NCBI GenBank assembly: GCA_041640295.1
Contig: JBEQAR010000001.1
Location: 82,453-142,991 of the forward strand
Direction of reading: 5' to 3'
From: a bacterium
Lineage (GTDB): Bacteria; Patescibacteriota; Minisyncoccia; UBA6257; HR35
DNA length: 60,539 bases
Shown piece by piece: positions 7,696 to 43,735 of the stretch. The stretch's first letter is position 1, and each line of letters opens with the position of its first letter. The notes below the pieces were generated by a model, which saw only the letters and a list, made by a program, of their open reading frames with translations, made no database searches and had not been told where the DNA came from. The position numbers were made by a program, and so were the translations under genes.

Positions 7696-8626
7696 TTATA
7701 ACTTTTCACTTTTTTCCACTTCTTTTAGTTCCTTATGAGATAAATAAAGAAAAATTCCCAATAAGGCAAAAGTGTTAACTGGAGCTAACCAAAAAGGATA
7801 GTGCTTACCAAAACTTTCCAAAATCATTAATCCACCAAGCATGCCTATTGAATACATTGCTCCATTTTTCAAATAAGCAAATTTTGAGATTAAATTAATT
7901 CCTCTAATAGTAAATTCTCTTACTATAAAAGCACCCAACCCATTTCCTAACAAAATAAGAGGTACAGAAACAGTAAAAGCAAAAGCGCCAATTACTCCAT
8001 CAATAGAAAAACTAGCATCAAGCACTTCTAAATAAAGAATTTTACTCCAAGCACTTAAATGTGGATCTAATAATTCTTTTTCTTTCGCTTCAGCATTTTT
8101 TTTAAATCCATCGGTAATAAAGAAAACAGTAGAACCAATTGAAAAAGCAAGAGCAAGAATTGGATTGATCTTTATTGCAATAAAGATTAGAAATGTAAAA
8201 ACAATTGAAGTAATAGCATAAAACCAGATTGCTTGTCGGTGAATAAATCTTTCAACTAAAAAGGCATATTGTTTTTCTTCAAGAAAAAGCCAACTTAAAA
8301 AAAACAAACAAAAGATAAATACCACCAGCTGAGAGTAAAAGACTTTGAGATTTTTCTATGTAGTGTTGAATAGCAGGATCATTAGAAAACACAAAGGTAA
8401 TTAATTGAACAGGTGTTAATTTAGGATTAGTTAACCAAACAATTATAAAAGGTAAAATACCACGCATTAAAAACACAGCGATAAGTAATCCCCAAACAAG
8501 AAAAATTCTTTTAAATCTTTCGGGTAAGGTTTTCAAAACATGAGCATTAACTATAGCATTATCAATAGAGGAAATAACTTCAAAAACTACTAATCCTAAA
8601 ATAATTATTAAGGATTGAAAAATCAT
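7696..8626 (-). pseudogene. DUF475/TerC-like integral membrane protein, split by one extra base in an A8 (coding-strand T8) run at 8297-8304
   Basis: The upstream piece has EVISSIDNAIVNAHVL and the downstream piece has LEVLDASFSIDGVIGAFAFT, the two halves of one membrane-protein family. The ORFs overlap in adjacent frames. Deleting one T gives ..GGIYLLFVFLSWLFLEEKQY.. as a continuous protein. Confidence 0.6.
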
Positions 8627-8836
8627 TTTTTAATTATATATCAATGTTAATTTAATTTACTAAATAAATTATTAGTAGTTTACTATCTCAGGTTATTGAA
8701 GAAAATATTTTATTTGGAAAATAATTTATTTTTTATTGTTAATTTAATTACTATAATAAAATTTAGAAATTTGATAAATATTTTTTATAATTTAGTACAA
8801 AACATTTTAGAAAATTTAATTAATGAAATTTCTGAA

Positions 8837-9643
8837 ATGATCATCATTAAAATCGGTGGAGGAAAAGAAATTAATTTTGATTACATAGCTGAAGACTTAA
8901 AAAATATAGTGAATAAAGAAAAAGTTATTATAGTTTTGGGAGCAAATTATTATCGAAATAAATTAGCAGAAGAATTGGGAATAAAAATTAAAATTATTGA
9001 ATCAGAGTCTGGTTATAAAAGTGTTTATTCTGATCAACAATTAATTGATTTAATGATGATGGCTTATGCTGGTTTGGCAGCAAAAAAATTAACCTCAAAG
9101 TTAATTCAAGCAAATATTAAAGCAATCAGCTTATCTGGTATTGATGATCAATTAATTATAGCTAAAAGAAAAAAATTTATTACAGCTAAAATTGAGAATA
9201 AAATTAAATTAATTGATAATGATTATAGTGGAAAAATAGAGCAAATAAATAAAGAACTGCTTGATTATTTATTAGCTAAAGATTATGTAATTATAATAAC
9301 CCCACCAGCTATTAGTTATGAGGGTGAAATTTTAAATGTTGATAATGATCAAATTGTAGTTAATTTAGCTAAAATTTATCATCCGCAATCTGTAATTTTC
9401 CTTATTGAGGCACCGGGAATTTTAAAAAATAATATGAATGAAGAAATAATTGAGCATCTCAAAATAGCTGAATTAGAAAATTTGATTAGAGAAAGTTCAG
9501 ATTATGGTTTTCAGAAAAAACTTCTAAATATTAAGAGATTAACAGAATTTAATATTCCAAAAATCATTATTGCTGATGGTCGAATAGAAAAACCAATAAG
9601 TCGGGCATTAAATTCAATCGGAACTGTCATTAGTAGTGATTAA
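8837..9643 (+). CDS. lysZ: [LysW]-aminoadipate/[LysW]-glutamate kinase (amino-acid kinase family)
   Basis: MIIIKIGGGKEINFDYIAEDL.., ..ITPPAISYEGEILNVDNDQI.. and the C-terminal ADGRIEKPISRALNSIGTVI parallel Thermus LysZ as I recall it. I moved the start to ATG 8837; the track start is TTG 8696 with an implausible leader. The stop overlaps the lysJ start (TAATG). Confidence 0.8.
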   Translation: MIIIKIGGGKEINFDYIAEDLKNIVNKEKVIIVLGANYYRNKLAEELGIKIKIIESESGYKSVYSDQQLIDLMMMAYAGLAAKKLTSKLIQANIKAISLSGIDDQLIIAKRKKFITAKIENKIKLIDNDYSGKIEQINKELLDYLLAKDYVIIITPPAISYEGEILNVDNDQIVVNLAKIYHPQSVIFLIEAPGILKNNMNEEIIEHLKIAELENLIRESSDYGFQKKLLNIKRLTEFNIPKIIIADGRIEKPISRALNSIGTVISSD

Positions 9644-10785
9644 TGATGGAAACTAATCTTTTGAATTTATATTTAGAAAGAAATTTAGAAATAGTTGCTG
9701 GTGATGGTTGTTATTTATTCGATAAAGATGGAAATAAATATTTAGATATGATGTCTAATTATGGCGTTAATATTTTAGGCTATAATAACAGGTTGTTAAA
9801 TAATATTGCTTGTCAACAAATAGAAAAGTTAATTAATATTCATGGCAGTTTTTTGCATCCGCTTAGGGAAGAATTAGCTAAAAAAATATTAGAAAAATGT
9901 AAAATAGAAGGAAAAGTATTATTTCTTAATTCTGGCAGCGAAGCCGTAGAAGCAGCTTTAAAATTCGCTTTATATTTTTCAAAAAAGAAAGAAATTATTG
10001 CTATGAAAAATAGTTATCACGGGAAAACATTAGGAGCTTTATCTTTAACATCAAATAGTAAATATCATGAAGGATTATCGGATTTTTTACTTAAGGTAAA
10101 ATTTGTTCAATTTGGTAAAATAAAAGATTTAGAAGAAAGTATTAACGATCAGACGGGAGTAATAATTGTTGAACCAATTCAAGGAGATGGAGGAATTAAT
10201 ATTCCGCCCTCTGGTTATCTTGAACAATTATCTAAAATGTGTCAGGAAAAAAATATTATTTTAATTATTGATGAAATTCAATCAGGGGTAGGAAGAACCG
10301 GTAAATTTTTAGCTAGCCATTATGAAAATATTAAACCAGATATTATTTGTTTAGGCAAAGGAATAGCTAATGGTTTTCCCTTAAGTGTGGTAATTGTTCG
10401 AGATCAACTTGCTAAAAATATCCCGAAGTTTTTTCATACTTCTACTTTTGGTGGAAATTTGGTTGCTTGTCGGGTAGCTTTAAAAACTTTGGAGATTTTG
10501 ACTGAAGAATTTTTAGAAGAAATAAAAAATAAAGGTGATTATTTTCTTCAGCGTTTAAATGAGATAAATAATAATTTAATTAGTGAAGTAAGGGGCAAGG
10601 GATTAATGATCGGTATTGAATTAAAAAATAAAAGAGGCGAAGTCCTTAAAATGTTACAGAATAAGTTTATTTTAGCAATTCCAGCTGGAACTAATGTTGT
10701 TCGTCTTCTTCCACCATATATTATTTCTTTTAAAGAAATTGATTATTTTATCGAACAATTTAAAGAAGTATTATCAAATGTGTAG
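9643..10785 (+). CDS. lysJ: class III aminotransferase, [LysW]-aminoadipate semialdehyde / acetylornithine aminotransferase type
   Basis: The motifs GSEAVEAALKFA, DEIQSGVGRTGKF and TSTFGGN are present, and the gene sits inside the LysW operon. Confidence 0.85.
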   Translation: MMETNLLNLYLERNLEIVAGDGCYLFDKDGNKYLDMMSNYGVNILGYNNRLLNNIACQQIEKLINIHGSFLHPLREELAKKILEKCKIEGKVLFLNSGSEAVEAALKFALYFSKKKEIIAMKNSYHGKTLGALSLTSNSKYHEGLSDFLLKVKFVQFGKIKDLEESINDQTGVIIVEPIQGDGGINIPPSGYLEQLSKMCQEKNIILIIDEIQSGVGRTGKFLASHYENIKPDIICLGKGIANGFPLSVVIVRDQLAKNIPKFFHTSTFGGNLVACRVALKTLEILTEEFLEEIKNKGDYFLQRLNEINNNLISEVRGKGLMIGIELKNKRGEVLKMLQNKFILAIPAGTNVVRLLPPYIISFKEIDYFIEQFKEVLSNV

Positions 10786-11425
10786 ATTATTAGTTGTTTC
10801 ATCAAAAAAAGATTTTGAAATTAGTCCTTTTGTTAAAGAATTTGCTCAATTATCTAAGAATAGTTTAACCCCTGATGGTGATCGGCAAAAAGATGGTTGG
10901 GGATTAATGACAACAAAAAATATCTATAAATCAATTATGCCTATCTGGGAGGATGATTTGCATTTATATGATTGGGGAAATGACCGATTATTAATTCTTC
11001 ATACAAGATCAGCTTCTAATAATAAAAATAATATAGAATTTAATCAGCCATTTATTAAAGACGGTTTAGTATTTGTTTTTAATGGACTACTGAAGGGAGT
11101 GAAGATAAACATTGATGGAAAAATTGGATCTGAGAAATTATTTAATTTGATAACAAAATTTTATCAGGAAAACACAAATAATTATTTAGAAAATTTTTAT
11201 CAATTAATACTAAACAAAACTGAATTAATAGTTGGAATGAATATCGTTATTGTTGATTTAAATTTAAATAAAATTCATATTCTTTCGGTTTATACTCAAA
11301 ATGAAAATTATTTCGCTCTGAATTTTTTTCAAGATCAAGAAAAAACTATTATCTGTTCGGAACCAATTTTAAATTTTAATTTTAAGAAGTTAATCTCGGG
11401 AACTTTAAAAACTATTGATTTATAA
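10778..11425 (+). CDS. class II (Ntn) glutamine amidotransferase-like amidohydrolase, YafJ/EgtC type
   Basis: It begins MCRLLVV (Cys2 nucleophile) and has ..DGWGL.. and ..ILHTRSASNN...NQPF... I placed the start at ATG 10778, which overlaps the lysJ stop (ATGTGTAG). The track start upstream would run through the lysJ 3' end. Confidence 0.7.
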   Translation: MCRLLVVSSKKDFEISPFVKEFAQLSKNSLTPDGDRQKDGWGLMTTKNIYKSIMPIWEDDLHLYDWGNDRLLILHTRSASNNKNNIEFNQPFIKDGLVFVFNGLLKGVKINIDGKIGSEKLFNLITKFYQENTNNYLENFYQLILNKTELIVGMNIVIVDLNLNKIHILSVYTQNENYFALNFFQDQEKTIICSEPILNFNFKKLISGTLKTIDL

Positions 11426-11485
11426 TTAATGTTATAATATTAAATTACTTACAGTGGTCGTGATTAAGGTTATTTAAAATTAAAA

Positions 11486-11662
11486 ATGCATCAAGCTAAT
11501 TGTCCTATTTGCGGTTCAGTAATTGAATTTAATAATCTTCCCGAAGAAAATGAATTAATAAATTGTAGTAGTTGTAATAATCGCTTAGTTACTAAAAGTG
11601 TCATTGGTAATGAAATTATTTTAGAAGAAGCACCAACAATTGAAGAAGATTGGGGTGAATAA
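11486..11662 (+). CDS. lysW: amino-group carrier protein LysW (58 aa, zinc ribbon plus acidic EDWGE tail)
   Basis: It is not in the ORF track because it is too short. My translation is MHQANCPICGSVIEFNNLPEENELINCSSCNNRLVTKSVIGNEIILEEAPTIEEDWGE, with CxxC...CxxC and the C-terminal EDWGE motif. The stop overlaps the lysX start (TAATG). Confidence 0.8.
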   Translation: MHQANCPICGSVIEFNNLPEENELINCSSCNNRLVTKSVIGNEIILEEAPTIEEDWGE

Positions 11663-12504
11663 TGATTACAATTGTTTATAACCTCTTAAGAGAGGACGAA
11701 AAATTTTTATTAGATTCAGCAAAAAAATTAGGTGTGGAAGTTAAATTATTATTAGCGAATAAATTAATTTTGGATCCTATTAACTTCCAACCAAGCGATA
11801 AGTTAGTTCTTAATCGTTGTTTATCGAATTCAATTGGTGAACAAATAACTTATTTTTTTGAAAATTTTGGAATTAAAGTTATTAATAATTCTCAAATTAA
11901 TCATCTTTGTGCAAATAAATTTATTACTTCTTTATTTTTAATAAAAAATAATTTACCAACTGTGCCATTTTTAGTTTTTTTTGATGAAGAATTGATAGAA
12001 AAAGTAATAGAATATCTCAATGGTTATCCAGTAGTAATAAAACCGATTTATGGTTCATGGGGTAGATTATTGGCAAAAATTAATGATCGTGATGCTTTTG
12101 AGGGAATAATTGAACATAAAAGATATTTATCTTCTCCTTATCATAATATTTACTATACAACTAAATATATAGAAAAACCTAATAGAGATATAAGAATAAC
12201 TATTGTTGGGAAAAAGATTGTTTGTGCTGTTTATCGAGAAAATTTTCATTGGATTTCTAATACTGCTCGTGGGGGTAAAATTAAATTTTGCGAGCTAAAT
12301 AAAGATTTAACAAATTTATGTCAACAATTAATTGAAAAATTACCTTTAGGAATTTACGGTGTTGATATCTTCGAATTTAACAATGGATATTTAATTAATG
12401 AACTGAATCATACTTGTGAATTTAAAAATATTCAAAAAACTACTGGCGTTAGTATTTCTGACGAAATTATTAATTTTTGTTTAGAAAATTTAAAAAATGA
12501 TTAA
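11662..12504 (+). CDS. lysX: RimK-type ATP-grasp ligase, LysW--amino acid ligase (LysX/ArgX type)
   Basis: ATP-grasp layout (..VVIKPIYGSWGRLLAKI.., ..GVDIFE..GYLINELNHTCEFKN..) immediately after lysW. Confidence 0.8.
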   Translation: MITIVYNLLREDEKFLLDSAKKLGVEVKLLLANKLILDPINFQPSDKLVLNRCLSNSIGEQITYFFENFGIKVINNSQINHLCANKFITSLFLIKNNLPTVPFLVFFDEELIEKVIEYLNGYPVVIKPIYGSWGRLLAKINDRDAFEGIIEHKRYLSSPYHNIYYTTKYIEKPNRDIRITIVGKKIVCAVYRENFHWISNTARGGKIKFCELNKDLTNLCQQLIEKLPLGIYGVDIFEFNNGYLINELNHTCEFKNIQKTTGVSISDEIINFCLENLKND

Positions 12505-13528
12505 GGTAAATATCGTCGGCGGTTCAGGCTATGCAGGTGGAGAATTATTAAGAATTTTAGTTAATCATCCGAAAGTTGAAATTAATCAGGTTACTAGTAC
12601 TAGTTATCGTGGTAAACCGATTTCATTAATACATCCTAACCTAAGGGGAAAAATTAATAAAAACTTTTGTGATCTTGAGGAATTAGATAAATGCGATGTT
12701 TTGTTTGTTGCTTTGCCTAATTTAGAATCAATGAAGTATATTGAAAAACTTTCGAAACTAACTGATTATTTAATCGATTTGGGAGCTGATTTTAGAATCA
12801 AAAATTTAGAACTTTTTAAAAAATATTACCAAACAGAACATTTAGCTAAAAGTTGGTTAGATAAATTCATCTATGCAATTCCGGAAATTAATCGTGAAGA
12901 AATTAGAAAAAGTAAATATTTATCTTGCCCAGGCTGTGAAGCAATTTCAATTATTTTAGCTCTTTATCCCTTGGTCAAAGAAAAAATTATTAATGAGAAA
13001 AACAAAATAATCGCTGATGTAAAAATTGGTAGTTCAGCTGCTGGTTCTAAACCATCTTTATCAACCCATCATCCGGAGAGAAATAATGTAATTAGAACTT
13101 ATCAACCTACAAATCATCGTCATGAAGCTGAAATAAAAGAAATCTTAAATCTTGATATTGAAATAACTGCAACTGCAGTTGAAATTGTAAGAGGAATATT
13201 GGCTACAATTCATATTTTCCTAGATACAGAAATTAGTGAAAAGGATTTATGGAATATTTATTTTAAATATTATCAACAAGAACCATTTATAAGAATTATT
13301 AATCAAAAAGAGGGGCTTTATCGTTTACCAGAACCTAAAATTCTTTGGGGAACAAACTATTGCGATATAGGATTTAAGTTAAATGATCAAACTAAAAGGT
13401 TGGTTGTTTTAAGTGCTATTGATAATTTAGTAAAAGGCACTGCTGGTAATGCCATCCAAGTTATGAATGTTCTTTTAGGAATAGAAGAAAAAACTGGATT
13501 AGATTTTATCGCCCTACACCCGGTTTAA
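12497..13528 (+). CDS. lysY: N-acetyl-gamma-glutamyl-phosphate reductase family ([LysW]-aminoadipyl/glutamyl phosphate reductase)
   Basis: N-terminus VNIVGGSGYAGGELLRIL, active-site region CPGCEAISIILALYPL and ..DNLVKGTAGNAIQ.. are present. It overlaps lysX by 8 nt. Confidence 0.85.
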   Translation: MIKVNIVGGSGYAGGELLRILVNHPKVEINQVTSTSYRGKPISLIHPNLRGKINKNFCDLEELDKCDVLFVALPNLESMKYIEKLSKLTDYLIDLGADFRIKNLELFKKYYQTEHLAKSWLDKFIYAIPEINREEIRKSKYLSCPGCEAISIILALYPLVKEKIINEKNKIIADVKIGSSAAGSKPSLSTHHPERNNVIRTYQPTNHRHEAEIKEILNLDIEITATAVEIVRGILATIHIFLDTEISEKDLWNIYFKYYQQEPFIRIINQKEGLYRLPEPKILWGTNYCDIGFKLNDQTKRLVVLSAIDNLVKGTAGNAIQVMNVLLGIEEKTGLDFIALHPV

Positions 13529-14629: not shown

Positions 14630-15388
14630 TTATTTTATTTTTTTAATAGCCTCTCCGTATAAAATTATTTTATCATTAAATAATCTGTTCGGTTTTATAT
14701 TTTCTTTTAATAAATTAGTAATCAACTTTCGGTCAAGCCAAAATTTAACTTCTTTGTAATGAATATCGCTATCATTTCTCATTTCGATTTCTCCATAAGT
14801 TTTACCTTGAATTTTAAAAATTACTTTTTGATTATCTAATTGATTTTCAGCTTTCGCTTTTGAATTTTCTGGAATTATTAATTTAGTCAAAACCTCTAAC
14901 ACATCTTTATTATAAAAAACATGGAAAATATTGTCTTCTTTAATAACTAAAAAATCTACTTCGCCACTATTAAATAAACCTTTGTTTAGTAACAATCTTA
15001 ATTTGTTTCTATTAGTTAATTTATTTTTTAAAGCAATCATAAATTTTTGGAGTTTCATTTTATAAAATATTTTATTCTTTAAATAATCTTCTCTTTTAAG
15101 AGGGAATGATTTAATACAATCTAAAAATGTTTTACTTAAATTTACTGCCCTAAATTCTGGGTCTTCTTTAAATCTTTTTTCTCCGTATAAAAATATCTGC
15201 CATTTCTTTTCACCGCTTTTTACCGAATATCTAAATCCATTATTATCAATAACATCAACTTTAGCTTTTGGATCAGCTTTAAATTCTTTACCAATTCCTA
15301 AGGCTTTAGCAAATTCTTGCGCATCAGCGTGACCTCGTAATTTCACCTCTCTTGCTCTTTCAGAAGTCATAGCTTTTTTCTTAGGCAT
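14630..15388 (-). CDS. putative type II restriction endonuclease (PD-(D/E)xK-like)
   Basis: It overlaps the upstream methyltransferase gene by 8 nt. A possible catalytic motif is ..KVDVIDNNGFRYSVKSGEKK.. (D-x9-SxK). No family match that I can name. Confidence 0.45.
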   Translation of the reverse strand: MPKKKAMTSERAREVKLRGHADAQEFAKALGIGKEFKADPKAKVDVIDNNGFRYSVKSGEKKWQIFLYGEKRFKEDPEFRAVNLSKTFLDCIKSFPLKREDYLKNKIFYKMKLQKFMIALKNKLTNRNKLRLLLNKGLFNSGEVDFLVIKEDNIFHVFYNKDVLEVLTKLIIPENSKAKAENQLDNQKVIFKIQGKTYGEIEMRNDSDIHYKEVKFWLDRKLITNLLKENIKPNRLFNDKIILYGEAIKKIK

Positions 15389-16367
15389 ATTTTATTATAA
15401 GAAGCTCTTTTGTTTTTTTAATATGATTGGAATTAGTCTTTTTACGATTTACCCCAATTCTTTTTTCTCCTTGGCCCATTGTATAATGTGATTCAAGTTC
15501 GATAATTTTACAACTCCTATACCATTTTCTTATTGTTGGAGCATCATTATAAGAAAGAATAAAACCACCTTTATGATAATTTAATAAAATATCCCTTAAA
15601 AGCTCGTGATTAAAATTATCGTGATGAATAGGAAAATTTCTTTGTGGGTAAAGCCCTTTAAAAACAGTACTATCCGGACCTAAATAATAAGGAGGATCAC
15701 AATAAAAAAAATCATATCTAAATTTAGGAATAACTTTCTCAAATGATTCACAAAAAACTTGAAGGTTGTTTACTTTAAAATTTTTTACTCTAATAAGCAT
15801 TCGTTTATAAGTTTCTTTATTAGCATAAACACTTGACATCCAGCCTAAAAAGCCAGGACCATACGAAAGATTATGATTGAAATAATAATAAGCAGCTAAT
15901 TTTAAAGGTGGCAGTTTTTTTTCTCCAATCCAATGTTTTTTTAATTCTTCTTTTACTTTTTCGTAGGTTTTTTTATCAGGATTTAATTGCAACAATTCTT
16001 GATAGAGCTCTTCGGGCTTCTCTATTTGAACTTGCCAGTAATTGACTAAGATATCGAAAATATCAAAACCTATAGTTTCTATGCCCAATTCTTTCGCTGC
16101 TGCTATTTCTACAGAACCACCGCCAAAAAAGGGAGAAACTAATCTTTTTATATTATTTGGAAAATGCTCAATAATGTAACCAACAGCCCAACTTTTACCA
16201 CCAGCATATCTTAAAGGAGAACCCAAATATCTCTTGTATTTTTTGCCAATGCCTTTAAGGCTTTTCAAAAATATATCTTTCGAACTAAAATTTAACGGTA
16301 ATAACTTTTTTGTCAAAAGAAACTCTTTAAACAAAGAATTTTTGTTTTTTATTTTATTGTGATTCAT
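15381..16367 (-). CDS. N6-adenine DNA methyltransferase, Dam/D12 class
   Basis: LRYAGGKSW, SAM motif PFFGGGSVE and catalytic FYCDPPYY occur in alpha-class order (motif I before motif IV). Confidence 0.85.
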   Translation of the reverse strand: MNHNKIKNKNSLFKEFLLTKKLLPLNFSSKDIFLKSLKGIGKKYKRYLGSPLRYAGGKSWAVGYIIEHFPNNIKRLVSPFFGGGSVEIAAAKELGIETIGFDIFDILVNYWQVQIEKPEELYQELLQLNPDKKTYEKVKEELKKHWIGEKKLPPLKLAAYYYFNHNLSYGPGFLGWMSSVYANKETYKRMLIRVKNFKVNNLQVFCESFEKVIPKFRYDFFYCDPPYYLGPDSTVFKGLYPQRNFPIHHDNFNHELLRDILLNYHKGGFILSYNDAPTIRKWYRSCKIIELESHYTMGQGEKRIGVNRKKTNSNHIKKTKELLIIKYA

Positions 16368-40231: not shown

Positions 40232-43200
40232 ATGAAAAATATGAAAGTTAGGGCTGAATATCTTAAAATTTGCCCCATTGATAAAAATCGAGCTGGTATT
40301 GATGAAATTATTAAATTTAAAGAATGTTTATCAGATTATCATCGTTTCGGCTTAGATTATCCAAAGTTATTAAAAAATAACAAGTATTGTCACTTATTAA
40401 AAGAAAGCAGCTTTCTTTGTCAAGTGGAGAATAATTTATTATTATTTAAAAAATATTTCAAAAAATTAACCAACTATCAACCATTTCATCTTCAAATTTA
40501 TTGGGCAAAAAGATTGTTAAAGGGTGAAAGTTTTAGTATTATTGCCCCAACTGGTTTTGGGAAATCAACTTTTGGAATTATTTTTTCTCTCTTCTCTGTT
40601 GAAATTTTAAAAGAAAAAAAAATTTACTACTTAGTTCCTACCAAAATATTAATTAATGAAATAGAAAAAAGATTTAATAATTTTAATAAAAGAAACAAAG
40701 TTAAAATATTAGCAATCCAAGATAGACAAAAATTTTCAGATGATTTTGATATTCTGATTACTACTACGCAATTTTTACATAAAAATTTTGAATTGCTTCC
40801 CAAAAATTTTAAATTCATTTATATTGATGATGCTGATTCAATGATTAGACAACCTAAAAATATTGATAAAGTTTTAAAATTAATAGGTTTTAATGATGAA
40901 GAAATCGAAACTGCTTTTAAGGTGATTGATACTAAAAGAAAAAAGGATTATCAAAACGCAGAAATTTTGAAAAAAAATATAGATTTTACTAATAAGGGGA
41001 AATTAGTAATTTCATCAGCAACTTTAACACCAAGAACTAAAAGAATTAATCTTTTTCGAGAATTATTAAATTTTGAAATCGGCTCTTCACAAACATATTT
41101 AAGAAATATTGTTGATTTTTATGAAAATTTAGAAAATAAGAATGATATTTTTCAACAATCTTTAAAGTGGATTAAAAAACTTGGCGCAGGAGGATTTGTT
41201 TTTCTTTCTGATGATTATCGAAAAGATGATTTAAATTACTATCTTAATTTTTTAGCCCAAGCAGGAGTGAAAGCTATTTCTTATGAAAAATTCAACAAAA
41301 GAAACCGTGAATTATTTGAATTAAATGAAATTGATATTGTAGTTGGTTTTTCTAATATTCGTAATCCTCTAACTCGTGGTATTGATTTACCACATGTTGT
41401 TCGTTATGCTTTATTTTTAGGTATACCAAAATTTAAATTACCACTAAGAATTTCCTATTCTCCCAAGAATTTACTTTTAATTATTTTAACCTTTCAAAAA
41501 TATTTAAAGGAAAGTTATGAAGATATATTAACTGATATTAAGTTTTTAAAAAAATACAGTTTTTTGAAAGAAGACAAAGTTTTAGAAAACAAAAATTTAA
41601 AAAATAAAATTGAAATTATTCAAAATAAAATTAATGGATTTTTAAATGATCCAGAGTTTTTAAACAAAGTGAAAAACGACCCTAATTTAAATATTATTAA
41701 TGAAAATGGCTTAAACTTTCTATTAATTCCTGATGCTCGCGGTTATATTCAAGCTTCAGGAAGAACTTCTCGTTTATATCCTTTAGGTCTTAGCCAAGGA
41801 TTAAGTATAGTTTTAGTTGATAATGAAAAGCTTTTTAATAGCTTGAAAAATAAATTAAGAATTATTGGTTATAAGATTGAATTTTTAAATGATAACAATA
41901 AATTAGAAGAGGTGATTAAAAAGGTTGATGAAGATCGAAAATTAATTAAAAAAATTATTAAAGAGGATGAAAAAATTTTCTTTTATGATCCAATAAAAAC
42001 TGTTTTGATTATTGTTGAATCACCTACTAAAGCAAAAACTATTGCTAATTTTTTTGGTAAACCAGCTAAAAGAATTTACAACAATTTTTTACTTTATGAA
42101 GTAAGTTTAGGTAATTATTTGATAAATATTGTCGCTACCTTGGGACATTTCGTTGATTTAGTTTATAACGAGGGAATTTATGGAGTTAAAAAAAATAATA
42201 GCGAATTTATACCAATTTTTGAACCACTGAAAACTTGTTCAAATTGTGGCCGACATACAGAAATTAACCTTAATCAATGCCCTATTTGTAATTCACAAAA
42301 TTTCTTTAATAAAGAAAAATTAATAGATATTTTAAGAGCCAAAAGTAATGAATTTCAAGAAATATATTTAATGACTGATCCTGATATTGAAGGCGAGAAA
42401 ATTGCTTTTGATTTATTTGTTTATCTCTATCCTTTTAATCAAAATATTAAAAGAATTGAATTGCATGAAATCACTAAAGAAGAATTTTTAAATAAATTCA
42501 AAACACCGAGAAAATTAAATTTAAATTTAGTTTGCTCACAAATTACCAGAAGAATTGCTGATCGTTGGATAGGTTTTTCTTTAAGCCAAGAATTACAAGA
42601 AGAATTTAAAAATTTAAATTTATCAGCAGGTCGAGTTCAAACCCCTGTTTTAGGTTGGTTGATAAATAATGATTTAGAACGAAAGAATAATAAAATTTAT
42701 TTCATTAGAGCTTTTTTCAATCAAAATAATTATCTTGATTTTAAAATCACTAATAAAGATCTAATTAAAGAAATAAGAAAACTGAAAAATAATTTACAAA
42801 TCAAGGTAGAAATTAATAATGAAAAAATAGAAACCCTTAATCCACCACCTCCCCTTCAAACAAGTGAATTATTAAAAGAAGCTTGGAATTATTTAAAACT
42901 TGATCCTCAAACAACAATGGCTTTAGCTCAAAATTTATTTGAACGTGGTTATATTACCTATCATCGAACCGATTCGATTTATGTCTCTGAATTTGGTCGT
43001 GATTTAGCTTATGAATTCTTGAATAAAAATAATGAATTATCACTTTTTTATAGAAAATCTTGGGGGAAACCAGGTACCCATGAATGCATTCGGCCGACTA
43101 AACCTTTAACTACAGAGGAAATTATAGAACAGTCATTACTTAATCAAACAGAATTATTATCAAGAAGACATTTAAGACTTTATGAATTAATTTTAAAAAG

Positions 43201-43735
43201 ATTTATAGCCTCTCAATGTAAACCAACAAAAGTTAAAAAATTAATTCTTAATTTCAAACTTCTTTCTAATAACAAAACCTTAATAAAAGACAAAAAGGAA
43301 ATTATCTCAGAGATTGTTGAAGAAGGCTTTAATAAATTTTACTCAAATTTTTATTTTTTTAATATTGAGCCTAAAATTTATAATATTGAATCTATTAAAA
43401 TTAATCGTTTTTCTGCTGTTCCACCTTATACTAATGCATCGATTATTGATGAAATGAAAAAAAAGGGATTAGGTAGACCATCAACTTATTCTTTGATTAT
43501 TCAAACTATTTTAGATAGAAAATATGCTATTATCAAAAGTGGTTATTTAATTCCCACCAATCAAGGAAAAAAAATTTATTATTATTTAATCGAAAAATAC
43601 AAAGATTTGGTCGAAGAACAATTCACTAAAAAATTAGAATCAGAAATGGATAAAATTGAAAAAGGTCGAATTAATTATCAACAAATCTTATTTAATCTAT
43701 TTAGTAGATTATTTAAAGATGAGAATAAAAAATAA
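40232..43735 (+). CDS. rgy: reverse gyrase (SF2 helicase-like domain fused to a type IA topoisomerase)
   Basis: A single 1167-aa ORF. The helicase part has motif I APTGFGKST, motif II DDADS and motif VI QASGRTSRL. The topoisomerase part has Toprim IIVESPTKAKTI and TDPDIEGEKIA, zinc ribbon CSNCGRH...CPICNS and active-site GYITYHRTDS. Confidence 0.9.
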   Translation: MKNMKVRAEYLKICPIDKNRAGIDEIIKFKECLSDYHRFGLDYPKLLKNNKYCHLLKESSFLCQVENNLLLFKKYFKKLTNYQPFHLQIYWAKRLLKGESFSIIAPTGFGKSTFGIIFSLFSVEILKEKKIYYLVPTKILINEIEKRFNNFNKRNKVKILAIQDRQKFSDDFDILITTTQFLHKNFELLPKNFKFIYIDDADSMIRQPKNIDKVLKLIGFNDEEIETAFKVIDTKRKKDYQNAEILKKNIDFTNKGKLVISSATLTPRTKRINLFRELLNFEIGSSQTYLRNIVDFYENLENKNDIFQQSLKWIKKLGAGGFVFLSDDYRKDDLNYYLNFLAQAGVKAISYEKFNKRNRELFELNEIDIVVGFSNIRNPLTRGIDLPHVVRYALFLGIPKFKLPLRISYSPKNLLLIILTFQKYLKESYEDILTDIKFLKKYSFLKEDKVLENKNLKNKIEIIQNKINGFLNDPEFLNKVKNDPNLNIINENGLNFLLIPDARGYIQASGRTSRLYPLGLSQGLSIVLVDNEKLFNSLKNKLRIIGYKIEFLNDNNKLEEVIKKVDEDRKLIKKIIKEDEKIFFYDPIKTVLIIVESPTKAKTIANFFGKPAKRIYNNFLLYEVSLGNYLINIVATLGHFVDLVYNEGIYGVKKNNSEFIPIFEPLKTCSNCGRHTEINLNQCPICNSQNFFNKEKLIDILRAKSNEFQEIYLMTDPDIEGEKIAFDLFVYLYPFNQNIKRIELHEITKEEFLNKFKTPRKLNLNLVCSQITRRIADRWIGFSLSQELQEEFKNLNLSAGRVQTPVLGWLINNDLERKNNKIYFIRAFFNQNNYLDFKITNKDLIKEIRKLKNNLQIKVEINNEKIETLNPPPPLQTSELLKEAWNYLKLDPQTTMALAQNLFERGYITYHRTDSIYVSEFGRDLAYEFLNKNNELSLFYRKSWGKPGTHECIRPTKPLTTEEIIEQSLLNQTELLSRRHLRLYELILKRFIASQCKPTKVKKLILNFKLLSNNKTLIKDKKEIISEIVEEGFNKFYSNFYFFNIEPKIYNIESIKINRFSAVPPYTNASIIDEMKKKGLGRPSTYSLIIQTILDRKYAIIKSGYLIPTNQGKKIYYYLIEKYKDLVEEQFTKKLESEMDKIEKGRINYQQILFNLFSRLFKDENKK

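Follow-up and report, generated by a model that had tools for sequence, protein, structure and literature searches.

A LysW amino-group carrier operon in a small-genome Parcubacteria lineage from hot springs, with a candidate cysteine Ntn hydrolase in the place of LysK

Does a bacterium with a genome of 0.66 Mb operate a LysW amino-group carrier pathway and, if so, on which substrate and with which release enzyme? The question is raised by positions 8837-13528 (plus strand) of a 60,539-nt stretch of contig JBEQAR010000001.1 (assembly GCA_041640295.1), hereafter the window. An initial annotation had described here an operon of six genes, lysZ, lysJ, an N-terminal nucleophile (Ntn) amidohydrolase gene, lysW, lysX, and lysY. 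We confirmed this operon as described: each of the six calls, including the Ntn amidohydrolase with its Met-Cys start, corresponds to an open reading frame (ORF) and has family or Protein Data Bank (PDB) matches, and the genes form one translationally coupled unit. Stop and start codons overlap in TAATG at 9641-9645 (lysZ/lysJ) and 11660-11664 (lysW/lysX) and by 8 nt at 10778-10785 (lysJ/Ntn, read in the sequence) and 12497-12504 (lysX/lysY, from ORF coordinates), just as had been noted, while a spacer of 60 nt lies ahead of lysW. We consider it reasonably probable that a thermophilic Parcubacteria genus possesses here a native and functional LysW operon, whose genes cover the aminoadipate lysine pathway only in its carrier-dependent back half.

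The carrier gene, lysW, was missed by the ORF track and yet is genuine, as the initial annotation had maintained. Its product of 58 aa has a zinc ribbon (CPIC...CSSC) and, at the C terminus, an acidic tail with EDWGE as its last residues. The score against PF21344 (30.7 bits) is above the cut-off of 27, whereas the TIGR01206 and NF041070 models were matched below their cut-offs. Matches among solved structures are the LysW chains of Thermococcus kodakarensis (5k2m_E) and Thermus thermophilus (3wwl), the closest being that of Thermococcus.

The four canonical enzymes show a consistent pattern of similarity. LysX is composed of PF22626 (pre-ATP-grasp) and PF08443 domains, scores 270 bits with TIGR02144, just below the cut-off of 275.6, and matches T. 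thermophilus LysX (3vpd, 218.8 bits) better than T. kodakarensis LysX (174.1 bits) or Sulfurisphaera ArgX (3vpb, 98.7 bits). LysZ scores 216 bits with the [LysW]-aminoadipate kinase model NF010659, just under its cut-off of 223, and among PDB entries it is most similar to T. thermophilus LysZ (3u6u, 165.6 bits, versus 50.6 bits for ArgB). LysY reaches 377.8 bits with TIGR01850, is closest to T. thermophilus LysY (5eio/2ozp, 337.8 bits, versus 218.3 bits for Thermotoga ArgC), and aligns with Thermus LysY in the GC and HRH motifs that carry the Cys and His residues. LysJ, of the argD/LysJ family (PF00202, 348.8 bits), has the DEIQ motif and the GKGIANG lysine motif and is the only class I-III aminotransferase match in the genome; it scores 328.9 and 272 bits with the LysJ equivalog models, for which the cut-off is 700. 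In family and PDB comparisons, all five canonical parts lead to LysW-system proteins of Thermus or Thermococcus, which makes it nearly certain that the operon encodes a real LysW pathway. The outcome that the initial annotation had named as contrary to its claim, that is, ordinary ArgB, ArgC, and ArgD enzymes with an ArgJ elsewhere and an irrelevant LysW, fails since LysZ and LysY are of the LysW-dependent type, the small ORF is LysW-like, and ArgJ is absent from 3/3 genomes of the genus.

The remaining member of the operon is the Ntn protein. It begins with MCRLL, so that a cysteine directly follows the initiator methionine, and at least 90% of the sequences in an alignment of 20 family members share C2, R77 and N102-G103 being invariant or nearly so. 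Other conserved positions of the family are G40-W41-G42, H75-x-R77-S78, N89-x-P91, and F101-N102-G103. Approximately 138 homologues of roughly 210 aa each were found in a word-indexed database. The family profile matched 3mdn, a protein with a class-II amidotransferase domain, at E 6.6e-6 and EgtC at E 1.8e-4. The alignment pairs the DGWG, RSA, and NG motifs, R77 and N102-G103 of the family falling on RSA and NG of EgtC. An AlphaFold (AF2) model of the protein has a mean predicted local distance difference test (pLDDT) score of 94.9 and a predicted template modelling (TM) score, pTM, of 0.92, and its closest Foldseek match in the PDB is EgtC (TM 0.77, E 5e-10), followed by the glutaminase domains of GlmS and PurF. 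The predicted four-layer Ntn fold and the motifs, among them the conserved Arg and the Asn-Gly oxyanion motif, place the protein in a divergent subfamily of the class-II amidotransferase-like Ntn superfamily. An apparent replacement of the conserved Asp of the class-II amidotransferase SDSE motif by Gly117, perhaps owed to the alpha-amine of the substrate being held in a peptide bond, was also considered; the idea was not confirmed, as the EgtC profile alignment ends before this region.

EgtC hydrolyses a gamma-glutamyl amide, and the link between LysW and its product is a bond of the same kind. With EgtC of the ergothioneine pathway (4zfj, 4zfk, 4zfl), the Ntn protein shares the fold, the N-terminal Cys nucleophile, and the three motifs listed above. 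It differs in its low overall identity (~14%), in the lack of any ergothioneine context, and in the proposed substrate, which would not be a small gamma-glutamyl compound but the residue at the C terminus of a protein.

The genomic context of the family is almost uniform. A scan of 185,579 species genomes yielded 315 relatives of the Ntn protein, and the context was read in the best 80 loci. At least one LysW-pathway neighbour is present in 79 of these 80 loci, the Ntn gene adjoining lysZ in 78, lysY in 74, lysJ in 74, and lysX in 71. The hosts include Gottesman-, Roizman-, and Levybacteria, Saccharimonadales, Ignavibacteria/Melioribacter, Calditrichota, Desulfobacterales, Aminicenantes, Dehalococcoidia, and Woesearchaeota, as well as gammaproteobacterial metagenome-assembled genomes (MAGs). 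The bacterial distribution is thus wider than the initial annotation implied when it called the pathway characteristic of Thermus/Deinococcus and many archaea.

LysK, the M20 metallopeptidase that releases the product in the known pathway, was not found in any genome of the genus; TIGR01902 has a cut-off of 163 bits, of which the best match in this genome reaches 65. The single M20 protein of the genome, on contig C3 and unlinked to the operon, was rejected as a hidden LysK: it is a generic ArgE/DapE deacylase that is missing from the operon-bearing sisters G001 and G002, neither of which has any M20 domain, and that is present in genera without the operon. In a co-occurrence table of 401 Patescibacteria genomes, six carry a true LysX, with the Ntn gene only (4), LysK only (1), both (1), or neither (0), whereas both are absent from all 395 genomes without LysX; kin in this table are not independent, with at least four families involved. 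Since LysK is missing, the predicted fold is EgtC-like, the context is that of LysW clusters, and the distribution follows LysX, we think it likely that the Ntn enzyme would act as the LysW release enzyme, a gamma-glutamyl hydrolase in the place of LysK. The proposed reaction, release of the product from the gamma-glutamyl group of LysW, is the same as that of LysK, whereas fold and chemistry are unrelated (a cysteine Ntn enzyme versus a metal-dependent M20 peptidase).

The family also has a bearing on the carrier itself. Among 68 Ntn-type clusters, the C-terminal residue of LysW is Glu in 57, including the operon studied here, and Gln in 11. The difference is found even within one genus, where a single codon separates the EDWGE terminus of this LysW from the EDWGQ terminus in G001 (locus L011, 8849-9025). 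A Gln-ended LysW cannot be ligated without deamidation and hence needs a deamidase, deamidation being the archetypal reaction of the Ntn class; maturation of Gln-ended carriers would be a second role of the Ntn enzyme. This opens an alternative, which we regard as improbable, that the protein only matures Gln-ended LysW or serves as a glutaminase elsewhere, the product being released by an unrelated and unrecognised peptidase. Such a deamidase is needed in the sister species in any case, the genome does possess its one generic M20 deacylase, and the characterised enzymes are only distant relatives of the Ntn protein, whose scores against GATase_6 (19.1 bits) and GATase_4 (12.9 bits) are below the Pfam gathering thresholds of 27 and 23. 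The last of these facts tells against the assignment as a release enzyme as well. However, maturation alone is insufficient for the clusters that encode a Glu-ended LysW, the closed genome G001 offers no M20 peptidase at all, the Ntn and LysK genes are complementary among the LysX-bearing Patescibacteria, and the enzyme of closest fold, EgtC, cleaves exactly a gamma-glutamyl amide.

If the Ntn protein is the release enzyme, the LysW pathway has a second, non-homologous enzyme for this step, a cysteine Ntn hydrolase instead of the M20 peptidase LysK, and this hydrolase occurs across many bacterial phyla and in some of the DPANN archaea. Given so wide a distribution, there would be hundreds of species in which automatic annotation overlooks the final step in making lysine. 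Some carriers would moreover be encoded as inactive Gln-ended precursors, adding a step of maturation or control to carrier-protein metabolism. The literature search, of incomplete coverage, found no paper on an Ntn release enzyme, a Gln-ended LysW, or LysW/aminoadipate metabolism in Patescibacteria.

With respect to the substrate, the initial annotation spoke of a whole module, and indeed all carrier-dependent genes are present; they constitute only the back half of the pathway, as the genes of aminoadipate supply were not found. A search that it had proposed, for homocitrate synthase (HCS), aconitase, and homoisocitrate dehydrogenase (HICDH) or for argF, argG, and argH, completed neither route: the supply enzymes were not found, and neither were ornithine carbamoyltransferase (OTC) and ArgG, the latter being represented in the genome by a sub-threshold PP-loop match only. 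Other consumers of ornithine, namely the ornithine decarboxylase (ODC)/LysA family, OKR decarboxylases, and ornithine cyclodeaminase, are absent from the genome, and dihydrodipicolinate synthase (DHDPS) was not found, which leaves no diaminopimelate (DAP) route to lysine. As these enzymes were not found, the genome shows no aminoadipate supply, no use of ornithine, and no DAP route.

The specificity of LysX is set by five residues, which read F-I-T-N-S in aminoadipate-specific enzymes, I-Y-V-G-F in ArgX, and Y-I-T-N-A in bifunctional enzymes, according to a 2025 study (PMC12998189). Aligned with Thermus LysX, the enzyme studied here and all 8 members of its lineage have T-V-T-N-I, which agrees with ArgX at 0/5 positions and retains the I/V-T-N core of the aminoadipate-type and bifunctional enzymes. 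Other Ntn-type clusters provide further hints. HCS lies inside 32 of the best 80 Ntn clusters. The x-I-T-N-V class of LysX dominates the clusters of the candidate phyla radiation (CPR) that are ordered W-X-Y-Z-J-Ntn, and it occurs once in a cluster running on into HCS, aconitase, and HICDH (L094). Of 14 genomes with W-X-Y-Z-J-Ntn clusters, MAGs of uncertain completeness, only 5 have an HMGL-like gene. With the same caveat on completeness, the H-I-T-N-V signature is found in three genomes with an HMGL-like gene and in three without, and the Thermus-type F-I-T-N-S also occurs in genomes without. Recurrent loss of the front half with LysX specificity unchanged, suggesting salvage of aminoadipate to lysine, would be the simplest reading of these sequences. 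Demand for lysine is high, at 9.8% of the residues encoded by ORFs of 150 aa or longer, and the MurE of the genome lacks the Arg of the DAP type. On these comparisons and on the gene content described above, imported aminoadipate as substrate and lysine as product is the combination we moderately favour.

Several observations weigh against this choice. HCS (HMGL-like domain) is absent from G000, G001, and G002, no aconitase or HICDH was found by tblastn, and no LysN-type or any other class I/II aminotransferase was found besides LysJ. Import of aminoadipate is an assumption, as neither source nor transporter has been identified. No characterised enzyme has the T at position 1 or the I at position 5 of the LysX signature, and Thermus LysX uses more glutamate when position 1 is changed (PMC12998189), while LysZ, LysY, and LysJ are promiscuous and hence uninformative on the substrate (PMC12998189). 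The phylogenetic position of this LysX is poorly resolved, with composition bias flagged. Finally, neither a lysine riboswitch nor another known RNA was found upstream of the operon in the window or in 8 related loci, and no conserved leader was found ahead of it.

Some of these observations favour glutamate as the substrate of an ArgX-like or bifunctional system, which would supply ornithine for the cell wall or another use. Glutamate is always available, ornithine is non-proteinogenic and maybe scarce, and the genus lacks the genes of aminoadipate supply. Thermus LysZ, LysY, and LysJ accept glutamate-derived intermediates, and single changes at position 182 of LysX, where the present enzyme has an uncharacterised Thr, raise glutamate loading (PMC12998189). 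The MurE of the genome has EDPY at the position of the DNPR motif. DAP-adding MurE enzymes carry DNPR, with a DAP-type Arg, and a MurE that is not of the DAP type is compatible with an ornithine-type wall. Nonetheless, we judge this alternative to be unlikely. The signature of the present LysX shares no residue with that of ArgX, the Sulfurisphaera ArgX structure scores far lower than Thermus LysX (98.7 versus 218.8 bits), no ornithine-using enzyme was found, and sister Ntn-type clusters carry HCS. An ornithine wall would furthermore leave all other genera without a source, since EDP[YF] is family-wide. MurE as a link between the operon and the diamino acid of the wall was rejected for the same reason: the motif is identical in family members with and without the operon and so carries no signal.

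For imported aminoadipate, the following sequence of events is proposed, the first four steps by homology to the Thermus enzymes and the release step from context, fold, and co-occurrence. Using ATP, LysX would link the Glu that ends LysW, through its gamma-carboxyl, with the substrate's alpha-amino group. LysZ would then phosphorylate the distal carboxyl, LysY would reduce it to the semialdehyde, and LysJ would transaminate the semialdehyde. Hydrolysis of the gamma-glutamyl isopeptide bond by the EgtC-like Cys-Ntn enzyme, in place of an M20 LysK, would free the product and regenerate LysW. Where the gene specifies a LysW with Gln at the C terminus, as it does in the sister species, this enzyme would also carry out the deamidation. 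Alpha-aminoadipate would be taken from the host or the community, uptake being proposed because the genus lacks the genes to make it, and the product would be lysine for protein and for Lys-type peptidoglycan.

A broader scenario, which is offered tentatively and which we find rather unlikely, is one of intermediate piracy. Ultra-small thermophilic Patescibacteria may have repeatedly dropped the homocitrate front half, living on free alpha-aminoadipate that is leaked by or taken from LysW-pathway hosts such as neighbours of the Meiothermus/Thermus type. The step that completes lysine may then fall to a Cys-Ntn release enzyme not described before, which also activates a LysW-Gln pro-carrier by deamidation. 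The relative mg094 is a Patescibacteria MAG from hot-spring sediment (Katase) in which a Meiothermus MAG is highly abundant (PMC9671151); the Katase paper contains no mention of a LysW/aminoadipate system. If the scenario holds, a 0.66-Mb CPR genome devotes 0.7% of its DNA to half a pathway, and aminoadipate is a defined metabolite that symbionts may draw from their hosts, a handle on host dependence, and a candidate cultivation supplement.

Compared with known systems, the operon is a variant of the LysW pathway that agrees in LysW, LysX, LysZ, and LysY and departs in LysK and the front half. With the T. thermophilus pathway (3vpd, 3u6u, 5eio, 3wwl) it has in common the zinc-ribbon carrier with the EDWGE tail and the enzymes LysX, LysZ, and LysY, next to an aminotransferase of the argD/LysJ family, and the best matches among solved structures are Thermus proteins, except for LysW (Thermococcus). 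It differs in having the Ntn cysteine amidohydrolase and no LysK, in the front half (HCS, homoaconitase, HICDH, and LysN) not being found in the genus, in the gene order Z-J-Ntn-W-X-Y, and in T-V-T-N-I instead of F-I-T-N-S in LysX. A single LysW with one enzyme set that could in principle handle both substrates is common to this operon and to the systems of T. kodakarensis (bifunctional LysX/ArgX) and Sulfolobus (LysX plus ArgX), and the I/V-T-N core is shared with the bifunctional T. kodakarensis type. Those systems, however, possess downstream arginine enzymes and LysK; here OTC, ArgG, and LysK were not found, and the ArgX signature is absent.

Several LysX variants were observed in other Patescibacteria. 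The F-M-T-G-L and V-M-T-G-L classes of Levybacteria-type genomes (L141, L099, L171, and G313) may be glutamate-specific. In a larger Patescibacteria genome, one contig (L022; G087 contig C63, ~6.5-15 kb) holds three LysX paralogues together with HCS and an Ntn gene, and one of these paralogues is ArgX-leaning (I-V-L-Q-F).

The likeness to clusters of secondary metabolism, which the initial annotation had suggested for comparison, was not borne out. LysW-type carriers are used for secondary metabolism in actinomycetes, and an amino-group carrier protein (AmCP) system of the Streptomyces type, making a non-proteinogenic amine, would have this precedent as well as a Patescibacteria cluster (L052) in which a thiamine pyrophosphate (TPP)-dependent enzyme and a fusion of PALP and serine hydroxymethyltransferase (SHMT) domains stand between lysY and lysZ. 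The operon itself has no tailoring enzymes within it or beside it, its neighbours being housekeeping or unrelated genes, all its enzymes are closest to Thermus proteins of primary metabolism, and a 0.66-Mb genome of the symbiont type is an unlikely producer. Taken together, such a role is very improbable. The L052 cluster (8418-12361, in a Patescibacteria MAG) lies between greA and the gene of a class-I lysyl-tRNA synthetase, and its insertion, in which the fusion protein is 773 aa long, may supply the precursor by another route or add a branch for tailoring.

The genome that carries the operon (655,364 bp, 27% GC, 98.4% complete) contains a bacterial 16S gene and 44 tRNAs, and the window lies in a 143-kb contig. 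It belongs to a hot-spring bacterium of the Parcubacteria type and of a thermophilic lineage; its relatives are Candidatus Parcubacteria bacterium KatS3mg094 (a single contig of 634,165 bp, rated 100% complete) and Patescibacteria group bacterium SKYB72. The GC content of the operon (0.24-0.30) agrees with the genome-wide value (0.27). The order Z-J-Ntn-W-X-Y, followed by the genes of glyceraldehyde-3-phosphate dehydrogenase (GAPDH) and RmuC, is intact in the closed sister G001, in G002, and in the deeper Joint Genome Institute (JGI) metagenome contigs L013/L014, at protein identities of 41-81%. The operon is native and conserved, and it is probably functional. Its restriction to one genus in the sampled family would suit an operon devoid of function, be it a contaminant from binning or a horizontally acquired relic in decay. 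The typical GC content, the position inside a 143-kb contig, the synteny in a closed single-contig sister genome, and the intactness of all six genes in at least four diverged lineages argue otherwise, and we assign this alternative a negligible probability; GC content together with the order kept in G001, G002, and L013/L014 rules out contamination, recent transfer, and decay.

Full-score LysX matches are present in 3/3 genomes of the genus, in 0/22 other genomes of the family, and in 0/16 genomes of the order. An even sample of 400 other Patescibacteria contains five further genomes with LysX at 268 bits or more, making 6/401, of which the present genome (0.66 Mb) is the smallest. Within the family the module is confined to this genus, and its occurrence in a reduced genome is as unexpected as the initial annotation had held. 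The gene order, a circular permutation of the W-X-Y-Z-J-Ntn order of other CPR clusters, is likewise unique to the genus. An attempt to name a donor was rejected: in the LysX tree, which contained no Thermus or ArgX references, the lineage has a long stem with biased composition and is weakly sister to the F-I-T-N-S group. Many matches of 100-185 bits to the LysX model in the 401-genome sample are other RimK-like ligases. About 37 of the 401 genomes have such RimK/LysX-like ATP-grasp ligases in this score range, with F-M-x-G-x signatures and no LysW pathway, and these may represent a separate carrier system.

The coordinates of the operon genes and of a promoter-like site are given in the table. 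The start of lysZ was placed at ATG 8837 (MIIIKIGGG), where the NCBIfam and Thermus LysZ structure alignments begin, whereas the listed ORF opens with TTG at 8696. The promoter-like site is the only one with 10/12 matches upstream of lysZ, and such sites are not enriched over shuffled sequences in this AT-rich region. A five-codon mini-ORF (MKFLK, 8823-8840) overlaps the lysZ start in ATGA; it was rejected as a leader peptide, as it is not conserved in G001, G002, or L013, and it is probably due to chance in AT-rich DNA.

Table. Positions of the LysW operon genes and of the upstream promoter-like site in the window
Feature	Position (nt)	Strand	Basis
Promoter-like TTTAGA-18-TATAAT upstream of lysZ	8762-8791	+	Consensus scan only, weak evidence
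lysZ, [LysW]-aminoadipate/glutamate kinase	8837-9643	+	NF010659; best PDB match 3u6u
lysJ, class-III aminotransferase	9643-10785	+	PF00202; argD/LysJ family
Cys-Ntn (class-II amidotransferase-like) amidohydrolase, proposed LysW gamma-glutamyl hydrolase replacing LysK	10778-11425	+	Met-Cys start, family alignment, AF2 fold, context
lysW, amino-group carrier protein	11486-11662	+	PF21344, TIGR01206, NF041070; 5k2m_E, 3wwl
lysX, ATP-grasp ligase loading substrate on LysW	11662-12504	+	TIGR02144, PF22626 and PF08443
lysY, [LysW]-aminoadipyl/glutamyl-phosphate reductase	12497-13528	+	TIGR01850; PDB 5eio/2ozp

The neighbours of the operon encode GAPDH, a Dam-like methylase, RmuC, a TerC-family membrane protein, and a bestrophin-like protein, the GAPDH gene being convergent and separated from lysY by 18 nt. 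Directly upstream of the operon, the gene of the TerC/DUF475-family membrane protein (7696-8626, minus strand) consists of two overlapping ORFs in different frames, of which 8279-8626 covers positions 3-115 of the NF010612 profile and 7696-8325 covers positions 107-305; the gene is split by a frameshift or a sequencing error inside 8279-8325. Farther downstream in the window, 40232-43735 holds an ORF of 1167 aa. Between the GAPDH and RmuC genes, the interval 14630-16367 (minus strand) encodes a 252-aa protein without a family match and a Dam-like adenine methyltransferase (TIGR00571, 75 bits); both are absent from the same position in G001 and L013, and the pair looks like a small inserted cassette of the restriction-modification type.

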